Below, piece after piece: positions 749-38,893 of a stretch of 64,000 bases of DNA. The notes under the pieces are model-generated. The model did no database searches, was not told the DNA's origin, and saw nothing but the letters and a program-made list of their open reading frames with translations. Positions within the stretch are counted from its first letter, which is position 1, and each line of letters begins with the position of its first letter. Both the position numbers and the translations under genes were made by a program. The DNA comes from Gammaproteobacteria bacterium (GTDB lineage Bacteria; Pseudomonadota; Gammaproteobacteria; Pseudomonadales; Azotimanducaceae), in NCBI GenBank assembly GCA_026706935.1, contig JAPOXV010000026.1:27721-91720 (forward strand). Reading direction: 5' to 3'.

Positions 749-2356
749 TCAAGCGTCGCTTACTTCCTCTTCTTCTTCGAACCAAGGTTTACGTGCAGTG
801 ACGATAAGGTCGCCAGCGCGTTTCTCGTCGATCGATTCATCAAGATCTAGCAGTTCGTCAATTGAGAGTTCAGCCAGATCGTCCATCGTGACGATGCCGT
901 TTGCCGCCAATTGACTTGCTAGCACGTCATCCATACCCGCCATGTAACGAAGATCGTCTGCAGGTACCGCTGTACCTTCTTTGGTCTCTCCCGTCAGTAC
1001 TTCATCAAGCAGAATATCGCCGGCACGATCGATGATTGCCTGCGCACTCTCGGCATCGAGCGTTTTTGAAGCGATGGTTAGATCTTCAGCGGTTGCTTCA
1101 CTGACTTGCTCCAAGTTCACATAGCCAGCGTCGAACAGATCTTTGGCCGTCTTGTTCTCGATTTCGAGCGAACTCACAAAACGAGTGACGGTGTAGTTCT
1201 CTTGACGTGCGATCTTCTCCTCATATTTCTCACGGCTAATGACCTTAAGTGTCCAACCCGTCAGCTCTGACGCAAGTCGAACGTTCATACCATGTTCGCC
1301 GATCGCGGACCCACTCTGGTGCTCCTCAACGACCAAATCCATTGCATGAGTTTCCTCATCAATCTCGATGCGTTGGATTTGGGCGGGCGCCATCGCGTTT
1401 AGGACCAATTCAGCCGGATCTTCCGACCACAGAAACACATCGATTTTCTCCCCGCAGATCTCACTTGAAATGCTCTGAATGCGGGAACCTTTGATACCGA
1501 CGCATGAACCGACCGCGTCGATCCGTTGGTCATTCGTACTTACCGCAACCTTCGCACGACGTCCCGGTGAACGCGCAACGCCTCGAATCTTGATCACGTC
1601 TTCGTGGACTTCTGGAATTTCTCGCTTGAAAAGCTCAATGAGCATGCCGTCATGAGTACGTGACAGAATGAGGTTTTGACCCCGATCTTCCGCGGTCACG
1701 TCTACTAGATATGCCTTGACCTGATCTTCCTTATGAAGGATTTCTCGTTTACCGTCCCCAATAGGAATCAGGTTTTCACGATCGAGTCGGCCTTCAGCCA
1801 GTTGTGGAAGCTCGAGGATGACCGAACGCGTCTCCTTGGTCTTATTGTTGATGAGAAAGCGTGACACCTTGCCCGTCACCAACTCACCGATCCGTGGTCG
1901 ATATTCAGCGACGATTCGTTCTCGTTCGGCGCGTCGGACCTCCTGGTTGATCACCTGCTTGGAAATCTGAGCAACAATTCGACCCATGTTGACGTTTTCG
2001 TGGGGTTCCTCCCACGTCTGTCCGATATCCAGTGCGGGATTCCGTTCTCGTGCTTGGTCAACTGTAAGGTGGACTTCAGGGTTGAACGGGATTCGTTCTT
2101 CTAGTTCCTCACCGTTTGTTTGGTCTTCAACCTGATAGAACGGCATATCTGCAGGATCCACGATATGCCAGATACGATAGGTCGATTGTTCGTCGTTTTC
2201 CCAATCGATAGCAACGCGGAACTCCTTATCCGTTCCGTGACGGCGCTTTGTCGCGACCGATAACGCCGATTCAATCGCATCGAATACGACGTTTTCCTGA
2301 ATGCCTTTTTCGTTCGCGATCGATTCGACCGCGCTTTTCACTTCTTTGAATCCCAT
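749..2356 (-). CDS. nusA: Transcription termination/antitermination factor NusA
   Basis: 535-aa ORF. The N-terminus MGFKEVKSAVESIANEKGI, the S1/KH-like central region and the acidic C-terminal duplicated helix-hairpin-helix region all fit NusA. It is flanked by rimP and infB. Confidence 0.95.
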   Translation of the reverse strand: MGFKEVKSAVESIANEKGIQENVVFDAIESALSVATKRRHGTDKEFRVAIDWENDEQSTYRIWHIVDPADMPFYQVEDQTNGEELEERIPFNPEVHLTVDQARERNPALDIGQTWEEPHENVNMGRIVAQISKQVINQEVRRAERERIVAEYRPRIGELVTGKVSRFLINNKTKETRSVILELPQLAEGRLDRENLIPIGDGKREILHKEDQVKAYLVDVTAEDRGQNLILSRTHDGMLIELFKREIPEVHEDVIKIRGVARSPGRRAKVAVSTNDQRIDAVGSCVGIKGSRIQSISSEICGEKIDVFLWSEDPAELVLNAMAPAQIQRIEIDEETHAMDLVVEEHQSGSAIGEHGMNVRLASELTGWTLKVISREKYEEKIARQENYTVTRFVSSLEIENKTAKDLFDAGYVNLEQVSEATAEDLTIASKTLDAESAQAIIDRAGDILLDEVLTGETKEGTAVPADDLRYMAGMDDVLASQLAANGIVTMDDLAELSIDELLDLDESIDEKRAGDLIVTARKPWFEEEEEVSDA

Positions 2357-2370
2357 GTTTCTCGTTTTGG

Positions 2371-2832
2371 CTATTCGAATACAGGAACCAATCGGGTACG
2401 TCGCACTTGCGAGAACGGGATGATCTTCAATTCGTCATCGACCATAACTGAGATCGACTCCTCGCTGCAATCCTGCAAGGTACCTCTCACGTGTCGCGTT
2501 CCATTAACGGGCAAATGCAATCGCACATCAACGCACTCGCCAACATTTCGCTGATAGTGATCATGCTTAAACAGTAAGCGATCCAAACCAGGCGAAGACA
2601 CCTCTAAGTCGTAGGTCCCAGCGATGCCGTCCTCGACTGCCAAAAGTGTGCCTAGCTGTTGACTCACCGTTTCACAATCCGCTACCGAAATGCCATTTGG
2701 TGCATCAATGTAGATGCATAGACGCCGATGGCGACCTGTTCCTGTCTGTTCAACTCCCCAAAGTTCAAAGCCGAGATGGTTAACTGTCGGTTTAACGAGT
2801 TTTTCTAGAAACGTTGTTCTTGGTTGCGCCAA
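2371..2832 (-). CDS. rimP: Ribosome maturation factor RimP
   Basis: 153-aa ORF (TTFLEKLVKPTVNHLGFELWGVEQ...) aligns by eye with the RimP N-terminus. It has a TTG start preceded by GAGGGA and lies immediately upstream of nusA. Confidence 0.9.
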   Translation of the reverse strand: MAQPRTTFLEKLVKPTVNHLGFELWGVEQTGTGRHRRLCIYIDAPNGISVADCETVSQQLGTLLAVEDGIAGTYDLEVSSPGLDRLLFKHDHYQRNVGECVDVRLHLPVNGTRHVRGTLQDCSEESISVMVDDELKIIPFSQVRRTRLVPVFE

Positions 2833-2964
2833 CGCTTTCCCTCGTAGTGTCGATGCGACATCCCATGCCCACTAACCTTACCCAGCGTTCAATCTGCAAA
2901 TAAGTACGGGATTAGGATCGTTATGACCTCACCTCCCGACCTTGCCGATGCGGGACGCGACTAA

Positions 2965-3003
2965 AACGATCCGCGGATCGTTGCGCGAACATGTCTGCGC
3001 AAC
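2965..3003 (-). promoter_or_regulatory. Two overlapping, mutually exclusive hairpins in the rimP-nusA-infB leader (attenuator/terminator-like)
   Basis: A perfect 18-nt palindrome aacgatccgcggatcgtt lies at 2965-2982 and is followed on the minus strand by a short T tract. A 7-bp stem gttgcgc/gcgcaac at 2980-2986/2997-3003 shares bases with it. Confidence 0.35.
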
Positions 3004-3320
3004 AATCGTCGCGATCACTCGCGACTGTCGGATTTCAGATCGAGCGTTAGGCTTCCATCAAGCGGATCGGAAGCACTCAGTACCGAATCTCAGAGGCGAA
3101 AATTATATTTAAATCCCGCAAAATGAATGAGTTATGGGCAACGCATTCGCTGCTTTGCGCTGTGTGTCCAATTGGGCGTAGCAAGCTCAAACTGAGAGAT
3201 TTAGCTTCTTTTCCCCGTACTTTGCATCGACGAAAACGCGATGACATTGACTCTCAAATGATTTGAGTTTCTCTTGTACTCTTATAGTTCTATGATGTAT
3301 GTTGTTTTCGATGAAAGAGA

Positions 3321-3629
3321 ATGCCGATGTTCATCGCAATGAATCGCTTTAAGATCACACTAGGTGCGGAGGATGGTTTTGAATCCGTATGGCGTGAGCG
3401 TGAGTCGTTCCTAGGAGAAGTTCCAGGTTTCCTAAAGTTCAATCTACTTCGAGGTCCTCAAAACGGTGACCATACACTCTATGCGTCGCACAGCGTCTGG
3501 GAATCCCGGGAAGCGTTTGAAGCATGGACACAATCGGAGAACTTTCGCAAAGCGCATGCACAGAGAAGTGCTCCTAAAGGAACATATCTAGGGCATCCAG
3601 AACTAGAGTTGTTCGAATCCGTCCTATGA
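3321..3629 (+). CDS. Antibiotic-biosynthesis-monooxygenase (ABM) domain protein
   Basis: 102-aa ORF with a ferredoxin-like ABM pattern (FIAMNRFKI..., FLKFNLLRG, HSVWESREAFEAW). Confidence 0.7.
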   Translation: MPMFIAMNRFKITLGAEDGFESVWRERESFLGEVPGFLKFNLLRGPQNGDHTLYASHSVWESREAFEAWTQSENFRKAHAQRSAPKGTYLGHPELELFESVL

Positions 3630-34013: not shown

Positions 34014-35858
34014 ATGGCTAGTTGGTCGTTCGGTTCGATCAGCATGCTAGAGCCTCGCGATTGGCAAGCGCTCAAAATGCTGCTGCCGTTCGTATTCGAG
34101 TTCAAATATCGCTTCGCGTTTTGCCTTCTCTGCCTCGTCCTAATTCAAGCTGCTAATCTCGCAAGCCCGTATCTACTCGGTTCACTCGTCGATCATTTCG
34201 CTGATACTGGCGCGGATCCTCTAGCTGTTGCTGCGACCGTCCCAGTCGCACTCCTTCTTATATATGTCTTCATCCGCTTTAGTGGACTCGCGATATCCGA
34301 AATCCAAAATGCGGTATTCGGCACAGTGACAGTTCGCGGTACACGTCGTCTGTCGCTCGTATTGCTCACACACCTGCATGGATTAGATCTCGAATACCAC
34401 CTATCGCGTAAGACAGGTGGACTTTCTCGCGATATGGATCGCGGAATTCACGCGCTCACGGGATTGATCCGATTGTTCACCTTCTCGCTGTTCGGTATGT
34501 TCTTGTCGATCGCCGGCGTCGTAGGTGTGTTTATTGCTTTTTTCGGATGGAGCTATGCTGTCATCAGCATCGCTTGCGCTGTGATTTACGCGGTCTACAC
34601 CGTCAAGGTTACTGCGTGGCGCACGCCCATCATTCGCCGTTCCAACGAAGCACACTCTAAAGCGCATACGCGCGCCATCGACAGCTTAATCAACCATGAA
34701 AACGTCAAGTATTTTGGTAACGAAGGCGCTGAGACCTCACTCTACGATCAGGAACTGACGATTTGGGAACGCGCGCGAGCGCGCAACCGCTATTCACTTG
34801 CTGCGCTCAATATAGGACAGTCCTTTGTCGTACATTTTGGTTTGTTATTCATGCTCGGCTTAGCGTGCTACGGTGTCGTTCAAGGTGAATACACGCCTGG
34901 CAATCTCGTTGCACTAAACGGGTACGCGTTACAGGTGTTTGGACCACTGGGAGCACTTGGTTCAATCTATAGGCAACTCAAACAAGCGTTTACCGACGTA
35001 GAGGCGATGCTGGACATTCTCGACACGCAGCCTACGGTATCCGCGCACGAAAATGCGCCGCCATTACCTGATGGCGACGGTCCAATCGAATTTCGAGACG
35101 TTCACTTTTTCTACAAGCCAGATCGACCTATTCTCAAGGGTGTCTCGTTTACTGTGAATCCCGGTGAGAGAGTCGCACTCGTGGGTCCAAGCGGGGGCGG
35201 TAAGTCCACGTTAGGACGACTGTTATTCCGTTTCTACGACGTTCACGCAGGAAGCATTTCAATCAATGGTTTGGACATTCGTGAAGTAAATCTCGACTCA
35301 CTTCGATCCAGAATCGGCGTTGTTCCGCAGGAAACAACGCTGTTCAACGACACGTTAAAGCAGAACATTCAATATGGATTACTGAACGCGACCAAACAAG
35401 ACATCGAGCTAGCTTGTAGGATGGCTCACCTTGATAGTTTGATTGACATATTGCCCGATGGTATGGAAACGGTCGTTGGTGAACGCGGGTTAAAGCTATC
35501 TGGCGGCGAAAAGCAACGCGTTGCGATTGCGCGTACCATGTTGAAGAAACCAACGTTCCTCCTGTTCGATGAGGCGACTTCGTCGCTGGATTCCGCGACA
35601 GAAGCGTCGATCATGCATGCGATCAATGAGGTATCCGAAGGTCACACCACCCTGATGATCGCGCACCGACTAAGTACGGTTATTGATGCTGATCGGATTT
35701 TGGTACTTGCGGACGGAGAAATTTGTGAAAGTGGCAGCCACGAGGAACTACTCGCCTTTGGCGGTCACTATGAGCAACTATGGAAGCTGCAACACCGTGA
35801 AATTGACCATGAGACGTTTCAACGAGAAACGGAGATGCGTCTTAGCCACGCCCAGTAA
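34014..35858 (+). CDS. ABC transporter, fused permease/ATPase (ABCB/Atm1-HMT1-like exporter)
   Basis: It has six predicted N-terminal TM helices, then Walker A GPSGGGKST, signature LSGGEKQR and Walker B LLFDEATS. The start could instead be the ATG at 34044. Confidence 0.9.
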   Translation: MASWSFGSISMLEPRDWQALKMLLPFVFEFKYRFAFCLLCLVLIQAANLASPYLLGSLVDHFADTGADPLAVAATVPVALLLIYVFIRFSGLAISEIQNAVFGTVTVRGTRRLSLVLLTHLHGLDLEYHLSRKTGGLSRDMDRGIHALTGLIRLFTFSLFGMFLSIAGVVGVFIAFFGWSYAVISIACAVIYAVYTVKVTAWRTPIIRRSNEAHSKAHTRAIDSLINHENVKYFGNEGAETSLYDQELTIWERARARNRYSLAALNIGQSFVVHFGLLFMLGLACYGVVQGEYTPGNLVALNGYALQVFGPLGALGSIYRQLKQAFTDVEAMLDILDTQPTVSAHENAPPLPDGDGPIEFRDVHFFYKPDRPILKGVSFTVNPGERVALVGPSGGGKSTLGRLLFRFYDVHAGSISINGLDIREVNLDSLRSRIGVVPQETTLFNDTLKQNIQYGLLNATKQDIELACRMAHLDSLIDILPDGMETVVGERGLKLSGGEKQRVAIARTMLKKPTFLLFDEATSSLDSATEASIMHAINEVSEGHTTLMIAHRLSTVIDADRILVLADGEICESGSHEELLAFGGHYEQLWKLQHREIDHETFQRETEMRLSHAQ

Positions 35859-35885
35859 AAAGCATCGTTGATGTTAATACCGTAA
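35843..35885. repeat. Direct repeat copy 1 (orphan duplicate of the SDR gene 3' end)
   Basis: tagccacgcccagtaaaaagcatcgttgatgttaataccgtaa is 38/43 identical to 36817-36859. On the minus strand it would encode TVLTSTMLFTGRG followed by a stop. Confidence 0.9.
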
Positions 35886-36013
35886 CGCACTCGATATTTC
35901 CGCTAAGCCGACAAAGCAAAACAGATTCTCCAAATGCGATGCCCACACCCCCTCACAAATCTTCGTAATCGATAAGTCGTTCGTCCCCTATAAGGCGTGT
36001 TCGTCGACGTTGC

Positions 36014-36436
36014 TTAACCGCGAATTCTGTCGAGAAACTTCGGAATCAACGACTTAAGATCAACCCGGTCAATTTTGGCAAGACGGTGTCCGGCAAGATC
36101 AACGACAGCCTGTGCTTGCTCGAGGGGAATGTAACCGAGAAGAGGCTCGTATCGACTACCGACGGGTTGCATATCAATAAATAGCGCTTCAGTGTTTACC
36201 TGGCGAAACGACCCAAAGCGTAGATGGATCGGTCCGCATATGTCGCCGGTCACGACGGATTGATTGGCTGTCTCGACTTGCACCGTGTCGTAAACCTCAA
36301 GGTCGCCGAGACGTTCACGCCACGCATTCGGTAATGTGAGGTATGCAGCTCCAGTATCGACCAAAACGTCGCACGTAATGCTGCAATTTGCGTCAGCTCC
36401 ATTCTTGATGGCAGCTTCGACGACTATTCGACCCAT
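36014..36436 (-). CDS. Retropepsin-like (clan AA) aspartic protease
   Basis: 140-aa ORF with the catalytic motif VLVDTGAAYLTLP (D-T-G). Its size is typical of bacterial single-domain retropepsin-like proteins. Confidence 0.7.
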   Translation of the reverse strand: MGRIVVEAAIKNGADANCSITCDVLVDTGAAYLTLPNAWRERLGDLEVYDTVQVETANQSVVTGDICGPIHLRFGSFRQVNTEALFIDMQPVGSRYEPLLGYIPLEQAQAVVDLAGHRLAKIDRVDLKSLIPKFLDRIRG

Positions 36437-36815
36437 CTGCGTATTGCTTCAGGAAGGCTTGTGACTTGGAAAGCTTACAGCTTTTAGCACTCGGGAAGTG
36501 TGACAGCAGCGAACTACACACAGACTATCGGCGATATCCGAACCTGGAGTCAACGGTATCTGAGCTTCAGTCGCAATGTGCGGGTCTTGCCGACCTACAA
36601 ACTGTCGAGTCGCCGTGCCGCGAGATTCGCGATCGACCCGTTGACGAGGAATGCACATAGCCGATCTGAGTCTTTCGGTATTTGTAAGACACGAAGGCGG
36701 TTAACTCTCGACGTGAAGCGACTTGGTACCTAACGCACCAGGAAACAGAACCAGAGGACGAATTACGGATATGAGATCGGCGATGAGTCTTGTCTTACAG
36801 CCCCGATTATTCGCC

Positions 36816-37562
36816 CTAGCCACGCCCAGTAAAAGGCATCGTTGAGGCCAAAACCGTAAGGTATTGGACGTTCGCGTCTAGCGGCAGACTATCCATGTAG
36901 AGGACGGCACGTACAACATTGTCAACGTGCATCGTCGGCTCCGCTTTTCGCGAGCCATCTGCTTGCGGCACACCATCGGTCATACGGGAGGTCATATCGG
37001 TTGCGGCGTTGCCAATATCAATCTGACCGCAAACTACATCGAACGCGCGACCGTCAAGTGCCGTCGACTTGGTGAGACCAGTGATCGCGTGCTTAGTCGC
37101 TGTATACGGTGCTGAGTTCGGACGCGGAACCTGCGCAGAGATTGAGCCATTGTTGATGATACGCCCTCCGCGGGGTGACTGGTACTTCATGATCTTCAGT
37201 GCCGCTTGTGTACACAGGAAAGCGCCCGTCAAATTCGTGTCGACCACGTGCTGCCACTGAGAGAGCGTCAGCTCTTCCATCGGGACTCCTGGTGCTCCCG
37301 TTCCTGCGTTATTGAACAGTAGGTCAAGACGGCCAAATTTCGAAAGGGTGCGATCAAAGAGAAGGTTTACGTCCTGAGGATTACCAACATCAGTGGCGAT
37401 CGCCAACGCACGATCGGAAGCACCTGATTCTTCGACGACTTCCTCGAGTACGGCAGCACGGCGACCAGCCAGTGCAACCGAATAGCCCTCCTCTAACAAC
37501 GCCAACGTGGTGTATTTGCCGATACCTGTACCAGCACCGGTAACGATTGCGACTTTACTCAT
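36816..37562 (-). CDS. Short-chain dehydrogenase/reductase (SDR)
   Basis: It has TGAGTGIG cofactor motif, NNAG, and the catalytic YxxxK (YTATK). Confidence 0.9.
36817..36859. repeat. Direct repeat copy 2 (authentic 3' end of the SDR gene)
   Basis: tagccacgcccagtaaaaggcatcgttgaggccaaaaccgtaa encodes [13 protein letters not shown] and the stop of the ORF at 36816..37562. Confidence 0.9.
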
Positions 37563-37564
37563 GA

Positions 37565-38614
37565 TTAGAGTGCCAAAGCTGTAGAAAAATCAGGAACGTT
37601 TGCCCAGCGTCCGGGATCCGATGCGCGCATGACTGCGATCGTTTTTATGACCTCAGGATTCGCTAGACCATGGGGTGGCTTGCCAGTTAACACTCGTATC
37701 ACATTCTCGGCCTGTTTGATGGGACATTCTTCGAGAAACGTCGGAGAGAATCCTGCGAGATGAGGCGTCACGATGGCATTTGGAAGTTTCAACAAGGGGT
37801 CATCCGACGCAATGGGTTCACGTTCAGTAACGTCTAGCGCCGCGGCTTCAATCTCGCCTGCTTCGAGCGCCTGCGCCAGTGCGGTGCCGTCAACAACGGG
37901 ACCTCGTGACGTGTTCACCAGTAGAGCTGTTGGTTTCATCTTATTGAGCGCTTCGGCGTCGATCAAATGTCTCGTTTCCTGAGTTCCAGAGCAGTGAATG
38001 GTGATGTAATCCGATTCTGCTAAGAATTCATCGAACGACACCATGCGCACACCGTAAAGATCCGCAGTCGATTGCTCAACATAGGGGTCGTATGCGATGA
38101 TCGCACTTGGACCAAAACCCCTAACACGATTGGCAAACGCTCTGCCGATATTGCCAAAACCAAGAATGCCCATGACGTGTCCGGCGATGCGACGAACTCT
38201 AAGTTGAAAAGAGTGGGTACTGCCACGCTCGTCAGCCCACGCACCGCGTCGCGAGGAATTCGACGCATCCGCAACACATCGCGTCAGAGCTAATAGAAGC
38301 GCCATTGCGTGGTCCGCGACTTCTGTGGTATTCACTCCAGGTACGTTACACGCAAGAATGCCAAGCTCCGTAGCCGCATCGAGATCGATTGAATCAACGC
38401 CAACGCCCATGCGACTCAGGACCTTTAAACGGGGACACGCCGCCATGACTTCTCGACTGGTGAGAGGTATCGTGTTAACTAGCGCACCGTCCGCGTCGGA
38501 CAACAAATCGACCATATCTTCAACCGAGCGAACGGGTTTCTCAACCACTTCGAAACCTGCTTGCTGAAACAAATCGACCCTGTTGTACGGGTTCGGCATT
38601 AATGCGACTTTCAA
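37565..38614 (-). CDS. D-isomer-specific 2-hydroxyacid dehydrogenase family protein
   Basis: It has the NAD motif [14 protein letters not shown] and a catalytic His context (VTPHLAG). Confidence 0.85.
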
Positions 38615-38635
38615 AAACGTAGCTCCTATTAAGCG

Positions 38636-38893
38636 TTACTTCATTTTTATGTACTCGAGGATATCGCGACGCACCGAATCTTCGACCGATGCGTTCAGTT
38701 CCTCTCGACTTATGTCTGGGCAGGTCTTTAACACTTGCGCCTCATTAAACAGAGGTTTAGTTTTCAAAGAACCTTCGACGTATTGGCCACCATCACACTG
38801 GTATTCGAACTCGACGCGCACAGGTAACTCAAACAAGCGATTGCAGCTTTCTACCAAATGTGTAACCACCCGCTTATCAACGACCCAAATCAC
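38636..38893 (-). CDS. Hypothetical protein
   Basis: 85-aa ORF at the head of the dehydrogenase/SDR operon. I recognise no motif. Confidence 0.4.
   Translation of the reverse strand: MIWVVDKRVVTHLVESCNRLFELPVRVEFEYQCDGGQYVEGSLKTKPLFNEAQVLKTCPDISREELNASVEDSVRRDILEYIKMK

Follow-up and report, generated by a model that had tools for sequence, protein, structure and literature searches.

We analysed a 64,000-nucleotide stretch of a gammaproteobacterial genome (the window), in which two convergent genes enclose a small insert. The ABC exporter gene, identified in the list of open reading frames, lies on the plus strand at 34014–35858 and encodes a 614-residue protein with ABC_membrane (PF00664) and ABC_tran (PF00005) domains. 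Its orthologues in relatives are 85–96% identical and share the same LSHAQ ending before the stop codon. Facing it on the minus strand is a short-chain dehydrogenase/reductase (SDR) gene (36816–37562, 248 residues), with a 2-hydroxyacid dehydrogenase gene (37565–38614) located upstream of the SDR gene. An SDR orthologue was found in 23 of the 41 genomes searched (40 relatives and the window's own genome). The ends of the ABC and SDR genes carry a direct repeat of 43 nucleotides, with copies at 35843–35885 (left) and 36817–36859 (right). A repeat search and direct reading agree that the copies are identical at 38/43 positions and spaced by 974 bp, as an earlier note on this DNA had described. 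A genome search and self-BLAST found two copies of the 43-mer in the 3.57-Mb genome, both at the ABC/SDR locus.

The left copy is composed of two parts. Positions 1–16 are the functional end of the ABC gene, whose final 16 nucleotides (SHAQ and the TAA stop) fall inside the repeat, while positions 17–43 duplicate the SDR tail in non-functional form, reading TVLTSTMLFTGRG and a stop codon on the minus strand with the SDR gene body absent. The right copy comprises the functional final 14 codons of the SDR gene (36816–37562, minus strand), and the TAG stop codon of this gene includes base 36816, which is contributed by the insert. The SDR-tail parts of the two copies show two amino-acid-changing and three silent differences. 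Both gene ends are left whole by the duplication flanking the insert, and the earlier note was correct in taking the right copy as the real end of the SDR gene and the left copy as the end of the ABC gene.

The insert is 931 bp in length and contains a retropepsin-like protein gene, together with 380 bp upstream and 128 bp downstream of it. This gene (36014–36436, minus strand, 140 residues) matches PF13650 (E = 7e-8; 33.5 bits relative to the Pfam cut-off of 24.3) and is the only conserved open reading frame in the insert. The 128 bp 3' of the gene form an orphan segment (35886–36013). On the 5' side, an extended −10-like box, TGTAAGCT, is found on the minus strand at 36472–36479, 35 nucleotides from the protease ATG, and is followed by approximately 330 bp of orphan non-coding DNA (36485–36816). 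A hidden gene in the 380 bp was ruled out, since all open reading frames are broken by a 1-nucleotide indel near 36601 in a near-identical assembly (L029), and NCBIfam matches were absent from this region. The Pfam match and the broken reading frames confirm the protease gene and the roughly 380 bp of non-coding DNA that the earlier note had placed between the copies.

Comparison with relatives indicates the direction of the event. The ABC and SDR genes are directly convergent in at least 10 further species of the genus, with the closest, G042, among them. The empty-site genomes (L006–L012, G042 and G043) have a 17-bp overlap of the two genes, a single 43-mer and no protease gene. In the G042 locus (L120), nucleotides 9–1543 align to window positions 34351–35885, stopping exactly at the end of the left copy, and nucleotides 1501–3382 align to 36817–38698, beginning exactly at the start of the right copy. 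Exactly 43 nucleotides of L120 therefore align to both window copies, from which it follows that 43 bp of target were duplicated when the 931-bp insert entered the overlap. The duplicated sequence consists of the 17-bp ABC/SDR overlap and the final 26 nucleotides of the SDR gene. None of the other 28 species representatives of the genus has the protease gene, and 300 other genomes of the order lack the insert DNA. In its non-coding part, the left copy has accumulated three or four derived changes, two of which would alter the invariant SDR tail, and the right copy carries one silent change. Such a pattern is expected of duplicated native sequence that has since drifted. We conclude, with close to full confidence, that the insertion is derived, that it duplicated exactly 43 bp of native sequence and that it carries no mobility gene. 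The earlier note had proposed that a small cassette inserted at the convergent junction and regenerated the gene end, and the relatives with an empty site bear this out. The uninterrupted junction that it had sought in relatives is present as the 17-bp overlap, and the protease-less relatives carry one 43-mer each rather than two. Its further points, that a recombinase is missing and that 43 nucleotides far exceed the target-site duplication of a transposase, are upheld, with no recombinase in the insert or the neighbouring genes.

The same insert, with the same junctions, is found in five other assemblies (L029 and L144–L147). The agreement in structure of five independent assemblies, one of which includes a 3.33-Mb contig, rules out an assembly artefact. 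L147 belongs to a different species-level lineage and has repeat copies of 44/43 nucleotides, while its nearest sampled relative, G043, has an empty site. This second occurrence of the insert at the same site had not been seen in the earlier note. Between the window and L147, dS is 1.38 for the SDR gene, 0.98 for the ABC gene and 0.73 for the protease gene, and the non-coding parts of the insert are 55–59% identical. The lower protease value indicates that the insert appears to coalesce later than its flanks. Repeat position 18 is A in both window copies and C in both L147 copies, and a derived T at position 32 is common to the left copies of the two lineages. In the right copies, 12/14 silent sites match, compared with 57/120 over the remainder of the SDR gene, a borderline figure since the last 14 codons of the SDR gene are more conserved in general. 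With L147 occupied and its nearest relative empty, either the cassette entered the same site by transfer from one species to another or it was precisely lost several times.

The protein encoded by the cassette has a conserved 128-residue core, with a D27-T-G motif and VDLK at its end, and a 12-residue tail that follows the loss of the ancestral stop codon. A cassette boundary at the conserved VDLK end was ruled out, as the variable tails are accounted for by stop-codon loss. We found 1355 homologues, and the family is 65–82% identical across Gammaproteobacteria, Acidobacteria and Gemmatimonadota. In the family alignment D27 is invariant and T28-G29 are present in at least 90% of sequences. The AlphaFold model (pLDDT 73) matches retroviral proteases with TM values of 0.62–0.69 on the target, at Foldseek E-values of ~4e-5, and the protein scores far under the cut-off of the NCBIfam clan AA models. 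Inspection by eye revealed neither a signal peptide nor a membrane segment. The protein is a putative protease that is presumably active as a homodimer. Its dN/dS is 0.05–0.10 relative to its nearest homologues. Searches of the protein database, the genome collection and the metagenome collection gave no homologue above 82% amino-acid identity outside the insert-bearing lineages, and dS to the nearest outside homologue (82% identical) is saturated. This stand-alone, very conserved and widely transferred family of retropepsin-like proteins merits flagging in its own right.

The wider contexts of the family were compared with the locus. A donor locus adjoining an ABC or SDR orthologue was not found in more than 70 family contexts. 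A known defence system was rejected, with no match in PADLOC, and a phage vector was rejected since viral contigs yielded no member of the family and the sole PHROG match was insignificant (E = 0.2). Flanking direct repeats are not a general property of the family, since most are REP/BIME-like hairpin doublets. The Vicinamibacterales loci L045/L046 and L055 are the sole family loci with duplicated neighbouring gene sequence. Duplicated tails were not found in more distant members of the genus, which discounts the SDR 3' end as an insertion hotspot there. In the upstream sequences of 38 loci, a TAnnnT box (TAAGCT, TACACT, TAGCAT, TATATT and others) recurs at approximately the same position in many unrelated contexts. 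In the insert, the window and L147 share 85% identity over the 48 nucleotides at 36437–36484, relative to 59% over the remainder of the upstream segment. Judged by this sequence conservation, the protease gene brings its own conserved −10 box, a candidate promoter.

The remainder of the insert is orphan DNA. No homologue was found elsewhere for 36485–36816, and 35886–36013, over which the window and L147 share 55% identity, has none outside the insert-bearing lineages. A genome search ruled out an origin of the insert flanks from elsewhere in the same genome. The earlier note had suggested that the upstream segment might hold a conserved RNA, however the RNA fold of 36437–36816 has z = −0.72 and there is no Rfam match, which discounts a structured RNA or known RNA family. 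The last 45 nucleotides of the insert (36772–36816) match the ABC tail (35798–35842) in register at 25/45 positions (P ~5e-5), a resemblance that is not significant by gapped local alignment. This patch is 44% divergent, compared with 19% for the non-coding part of the left copy, so a copy of equal age made by the same duplication would not by itself account for it.

We considered whether the paired 43-mers could belong to a known class of repeat. Elsewhere, members of the protease family are often bracketed by REP/BIME-like hairpin doublets of ~97 nucleotides, and the earlier note had named a dispersed REP-type repeat as a condition under which its own proposal would fail. The 43-mer, however, has two copies in 3.57 Mb, is not palindromic, and consists of native coding sequence, of which relatives have a single copy. 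Neither hairpins nor terminal inverted repeats accompany it, and the five assemblies agree on its structure. An integron cassette, which would fit the attC-like structure also raised in the earlier note, was rejected since the attC hairpin is lacking: the DNA fold of 35860–36013 has z = +1.06, and 172/200 shuffles fold at least as well. An insertion sequence, transposon or MITE was likewise rejected, given that the repeat search detected no inverted repeats at the insert ends and that the duplication is 43 nucleotides. Taken together, the probability that the locus represents a REP-type element, an attC pair, transposon ends or an assembly artefact is close to nil. Site-specific integration deserves more weight. 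Here the 43-mer would serve as an att site, and the cassette would be a minimal element lacking an integrase (CIME-like or a satellite). The element would have been moved in trans by a remote tyrosine or serine recombinase, or would be the remnant of a larger island from which the integrase was deleted. As with many integrases, the target is a gene 3' end that has been regenerated, and, as for an att-flanked element, the site is occupied in the window clade and L147 and empty in G042 and G043. The identical site and junctions in two lineages, the derived T at position 32, the matching silent sites of the right copies and the diverged look-alike of the flank beyond the repeat, at the end of the insert, are all consistent with this reading. 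Yet no tyrosine or serine recombinase lies in the 931 bp or adjoins it, and the 95%-complete genome has only two distant tyrosine recombinases (PF00589) and two small serine recombinases (PF00239), the latter on other contigs. The 43-mer is confined to this locus, and neither inspection by eye nor the repeat search showed an inverted-repeat core in it. The lineage's own base at position 18 in both copies is not predicted by a single reciprocal att × att crossover. We regard site-specific integration as unlikely.

Another reading concerns the later history of the cassette alone, and its starting point is still an insertion with long target duplication. One old insertion in the ancestor of the clade would have been inherited vertically, and the empty sites (G042, G043, L006–L011 and others) would be secondary, formed by precise deletion through recombination or slippage between the 43-nucleotide repeats. 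Such repeats do permit a scar-free deletion that restores the original overlap. The deep divergence of the window and L147 inserts, in both the non-coding parts and the protease gene, and the apparently greater age of the ABC-tail-like patch are compatible with an old event. The relationships based on the SDR gene would nevertheless require at least three to four independent precise losses, and the gene is missing from all of the other 28 species representatives. In addition, the protease dS of 0.73 is about half that of the SDR gene and below that of the ABC gene. A single old insertion with vertical inheritance is, on this evidence, improbable.

We favour an insertion with long target duplication that originated by template switching and was followed by loss and re-entry, with a probability of approximately 0.6 for this explanation as a whole. 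The template switch itself is proposed tentatively, at somewhat short of even odds. The first insertion would have occurred without a dedicated recombinase, most likely through illegitimate recombination while DNA was being replicated or repaired. A nascent strand would have departed from the chromosome past the 43-mer, copied foreign DNA, and re-annealed 43 nucleotides behind the point of departure, with the return possibly guided by the ABC-tail-like patch at the SDR-side end of the insert. Canonical end joining is unlikely, as no Ku was found in the genome. Since other insertions at this position truncate one of the genes, only events that duplicate at least the 17-bp overlap could survive. 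Once formed, the long direct repeats and conserved flanks would let the cassette be lost precisely and, in related species, enter the same site again by homology. Precise loss and re-entry together would produce two occupied lineages, with the closest sampled relative of each being empty.

A more speculative extension is that the cassette acts as a minimal self-propagating unit, comprising one gene and a portable copy of its target, which we judge to be doubtful. Recombination between the repeats would free a circle that keeps one repeat, and the circle could re-enter the cognate ABC/SDR site in related species by short-homology recombination, again with no dedicated recombinase. The highly conserved retropepsin-like protein, whose distribution is patchy, might help to retain the cassette through a benefit that is selfish or defensive. 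Kobayashi's group reportedly proposed that restriction-modification genes go through a 'virus-like life cycle', and the self-propagating unit, if real, would be an example of such a cycle in a non-nuclease gene.

Among known phenomena, the nearest is insertion with long target duplication, with a mechanism that we infer. It was described by Nobusato, Uchiyama, Ohashi & Kobayashi 2000 (Gene 259:99) and by Furuta, Abe & Kobayashi 2010 (NAR 38:2428, PMC2853133), and the earlier note had lacked this literature name for the pattern. The published cases have unique duplications of 45–47 bp to >400 bp around inserted genes, with no mobility genes; in one H. influenzae case, a 46-bp repeat overlaps 15 bp of the 3' end of a gene (PMC2853133). 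Furuta et al. 2010 required an empty-site alignment, a duplication of >30 bp, an insert of <20 kb without mobility genes, and a repeat that is not multi-copy. At this locus, an empty site aligns to both flanks and both copies (G042 locus L120, and also L006–L012 and G043), and the duplication is 43 nucleotides (44/43 in L147). The insert is 931 bp with no integrase, transposase or other mobility gene, and the repeat is present as two copies in 3.57 Mb. All of the published cases came from searches aimed at restriction-modification genes, a choice tied to the authors' double-strand-break hypothesis, in which they suggested a role for the DNA-breaking activity of the cargo (PMC2853133), whereas the cargo here is a PF13650 aspartyl-protease-like protein. 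The locus exemplifies a route of gene gain that has been described before, here with no restriction system in the cargo, and, given a cargo with no known DNA activity, the route may be general. The case is unusually clean, with base-exact boundaries, many empty-site genomes and both gene ends kept across a 17-bp overlap. The same cassette in two lineages also provides a system in which to ask whether long duplications make insertions reversible and transferable.

Comparison with known systems defines what is shared and what is particular to this locus. Like the Furuta and Nobusato cases, it has a native duplication of >30 bp that is unique in the genome, and transposase and integrase are absent. 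It differs in that the retropepsin-like cargo has no known action on DNA, the duplication covers the overlap of two convergent genes that are both preserved, and two species-level lineages share one insertion at one site. Genomic islands that integrases place at gene or tRNA 3' ends, and the integrase-less CIMEs derived from them, resemble the locus in having repeats of tens of bp that include a gene 3' end, a regenerated gene end, and presence that varies at one conserved site among relatives. Unlike these elements, the window element is 0.9 kb with one gene, has no integrase in or near it and no candidate dedicated integrase in the genome, and carries the host lineage's base at position 18 in both repeat copies. 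For the cargo, known bacterial retropepsin-like proteins include RimB of Pseudomonas, APRc of Rickettsia and the secreted Rlo proteases of P. aeruginosa. The window protein is similar to these clan AA proteins in being a single retropepsin domain with D-T-G, and its predicted fold matches retroviral proteases, as for other retropepsin-like proteins (clan AA; PF13650). The window family differs in being a 128-residue stand-alone protein encoded outside any rimABK operon.

The 43-nt direct repeat comprises a left copy at 35843–35885 (TAGCCACGCCCAGTAAAAAGCATCGTTGATGTTAATACCGTAA) and a right copy at 36817–36859 (TAGCCACGCCCAGTAAAAGGCATCGTTGAGGCCAAAACCGTAA), identical at 38 of 43 positions, in the same orientation and 974 bp apart. 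The plus-strand ABC-exporter gene (34014–35858) terminates within the left copy, while the right copy forms the end of the minus-strand short-chain dehydrogenase/reductase (SDR) gene (36816–37562). In its minus-strand reading, the left copy encodes TVLTSTMLFTGRG and a stop, with the gene body absent. A 140-residue minus-strand gene (36014–36436), which scores over the curated cut-off for PF13650 (Asp_protease_2), lies between the copies, with 380 bp upstream and 128 bp downstream inside the repeats. The earlier note had described this repeat pair, the gene ends and the intervening protease, and its description matches the sequence. Whole-genome self-comparison indicates that the 3.57-Mb genome is repeat-poor, and BLAST finds only these two copies of the 43-mer within it. 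Elsewhere in this genome, direct repeats of 300–370 nt (95–98% identical) surround ~3 kb of small ORFs on contig C31 (298585–298954 and 301457–302216), and a 46-nt repeat pair surrounds an IS21-like element on contig C6 (114287–116917).

We compared the locus to those of related genomes. The SDR orthologue was sought in the window's own genome and in 40 relatives, and 23 of these 41 have it. At loci L006–L012 the ABC gene runs straight into the convergent SDR gene, with a 17-bp overlap (TTAGCCACGCCCAGTAA), a single 43-mer and no protease, and the same empty arrangement is found in two species of the same genus, G042 and G043. G042 is the closest species (SDR dS of 0.40–0.52). Positions 9–1543 of its locus align to window 34351–35885, and 1501–3382 to 36817–38698. 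Locus bases 1501–1543 thus occur in both alignments, so that the stretch of the empty site matching both copies is exactly 43 nt long. None of the 28 other species in the genus has the protease gene, and the insert DNA is missing from 300 other genomes of the order. Together, the empty sites and these absences show that 35886–36816 (931 bp) is an insertion into the ABC/SDR overlap and that exactly 43 bp of native sequence were duplicated in the process. Where two genes overlap by 17 bp, an insertion leaves both intact only if it duplicates at least the overlap, and selection alone thus accounts for the survival of a long-duplication event.

The pattern of changes in the two copies is that predicted for a drifting duplicate of native sequence. 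Sixteen nucleotides at the start of the left copy, still selected as the ABC end, are the same in both copies. The left copy's remaining 27 nt are non-coding and differ from the relatives by 3–4 derived changes, of which two would affect an SDR tail that is elsewhere invariant. The right copy has one derived change, which is silent. The SDR stop is now TAG, its final base (36816) being derived from the insert.

Within the insert, only the protease gene and ~47 nt upstream have homologues elsewhere. This upstream region contains an extended −10-like box (TGTAAGCT), 35 nt from the protease ATG, and a TAnnnT box is found at a similar position in many unrelated contexts of the protease family. The ~330 bp further upstream and the 128 bp downstream have no match in the genome itself, the order, the family's other loci or Rfam; their RNA and DNA folds are not unusually stable and show no attC-like hairpin. 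Potential ORFs in these orphan segments were discarded, because an indel interrupts them in a contig of 98% identity. The insert lacks terminal inverted repeats, and at 51.6% G+C it is level with the genome as a whole (51.2%). The SDR-side 45 nt of the insert (36772–36816) match the ABC tail preceding the left copy at 25 of 45 positions in register (P ~5e-5 against random 45-mers of the window), a similarity without significance in gapped local alignment. Divergence in this patch is 44%, versus 19% in the left copy's non-coding part. The patch may be a short, imperfectly homologous stretch that guided the junction, or else the relic of an earlier, longer duplication.

The protease family returns 1355 matches at E ≤ 0.001, with 65–82% identity across Gammaproteobacteria (GTDB Pseudomonadales, Competibacteraceae and Methylococcaceae), Vicinamibacterales (Acidobacteria) and Gemmatimonadaceae. 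Such identity between distant groups argues for frequent horizontal transfer and, with dN/dS of 0.05–0.10, sequence comparison also points to strong purifying selection. The conserved core consists of 128 residues ending in VDLK, in which D27 is invariant and T28-G29 is found in at least 90% of sequences. In the ancestral protein VDLK is followed by TGA, which has become CGN or TCG in the gammaproteobacterial branch (window 36014–36052; L030–L036, L060). This loss of the stop extends the frame by 3–75 unconserved codons, giving a tail of 12 residues in the window. The AlphaFold model (pLDDT 73) resembles retroviral proteases; searches found no close solved structure, NCBIfam equivalog, PADLOC family or significant PHROG family, and no viral contigs encode the family. 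A gammaproteobacterial MAG (L038; 1862–2074, 3001–3386) carries, besides the full-length protease gene, a second, partial copy ~0.9 kb upstream of it.

Duplications were also observed around other family members. A ~480-bp cassette (promoter and gene) lies immediately downstream of a convergent 673-residue gene in 5 of ~14 related Vicinamibacterales genomes (L044–L046, L124–L137). The cassettes are 97–98% identical versus only 87–91% for their flanks, which suggests recent spread. In L045 and L046, the 3′ end of the 673-residue gene recurs beyond the cassette, in a duplication of at least 530 nt that has an internal deletion of 265 nt. In another Vicinamibacteraceae genome (L055; 2207–2530, 3420–3753), part of the interior of a 949-residue RecB-like nuclease/helicase gene is duplicated, giving 335-nt direct repeats (83% identical) on either side of the protease. 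Direct repeats of ~97 nt tightly flank the protease in several metagenome and Competibacteraceae-type contigs (L083, L085, L086, L088, L093, L047, L066). Each repeat comprises a pair of GC-rich hairpins (GGGCGGGTTAGCG...GTAACCCGCC is one example); it resembles a dispersed REP/BIME or REPIN-type element and does not look like a target duplication.

The protein cluster at 90% identity has five members. Loci L144 (a 3.33-Mb contig), L145, L146 and L029 are 97–99% identical to the window along the locus and share its junctions and left-copy-specific variants. The Tara Oceans scaffold L147 represents a separate species-level lineage, with dS against the window of 1.38 for SDR and 0.98 for ABC; its nearest sampled relative is the empty-site G043 (dS 0.69). 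At exactly the same position L147 carries a homologous 885-bp insert, with a duplication of 44/43 nt around it. Compared with the window's protease gene, that of L147 has dS 0.73 and dN 0.08, and the two loci are 55–59% identical in the orphan non-coding DNA, 85% in the promoter region, 79% in the left copies and 95% in the right copies. From these two insert lineages and their noisy dS values, the insert appears to be old, yet to coalesce later than its flanks. On the same data, it either spread from one species to the cognate site of another, or arrived early and was precisely lost at least 3–4 times. Repeat position 18 is A in both window copies and C in both L147 copies, while a derived T at position 32 is common to the two left copies. 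When the window is compared with L147, silent sites of the right copies are identical at 12/14 versus 57/120 in the rest of the SDR gene, a borderline result given that the last 14 SDR codons are more conserved in general. These three observations point different ways.

The insert is foreign, and mobility genes, terminal repeats and structured sites are all absent from it; we infer an origin without a recombinase. The main rival, a site-specific recombinase working in trans on the 43-mer, is unlikely: the only two tyrosine recombinases in the genome (C36:162572 and C31:699684; reading frames of ~340–370 residues) are far from the locus and possibly XerC/XerD, and its two serine recombinases are small and on other contigs. 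Ku is absent from this 95%-complete genome. The anatomy best fits a template switch in replication or repair, with a filled-in staggered break as the alternative. In a template switch, the nascent strand would depart the chromosome past the 43-mer, copy foreign DNA and re-join 43 nt behind its departure point, and the imperfect homology between the insert end and the ABC tail may aid this return. Later, the long repeats and conserved flanks would permit precise deletion and homologous re-entry, which would explain the patchy distribution at a single site.

Insertion with long target duplication was reportedly first described by Nobusato et al. in 2000. A second case may exist in this genome: on contig C32, outside the window, the last 146 nt of a 411-residue gene recur 2.77 kb downstream without the gene body (73381–73526 and 76154–76299; L108 2882–3027, 5655–5800). 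These direct repeats are 88% identical and enclose a 389-residue ORF and an SDR-like ORF. The entire arrangement is also found in the closely related G042 and is thus older.

The insertion in the window falls within the published operational definition of this class, comprising an empty-site genome, a duplication of >30 bp found nowhere else in the genome, an insert of <20 kb and no mobility genes (PMC2853133). Published duplications range from 45–47 bp to >400 bp, and in one H. influenzae case 15 bp of a 46-bp repeat lie in the 3′ end of a gene (PMC2853133). The cargoes of the published cases are all restriction-modification genes, for whose DNA-breaking activity a role has been proposed (PMC2853133), whereas the cargo here is a retropepsin-like protein. 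Insertion with long target duplication therefore gains a case without restriction cargo, which suggests that this route is not limited to restriction systems.
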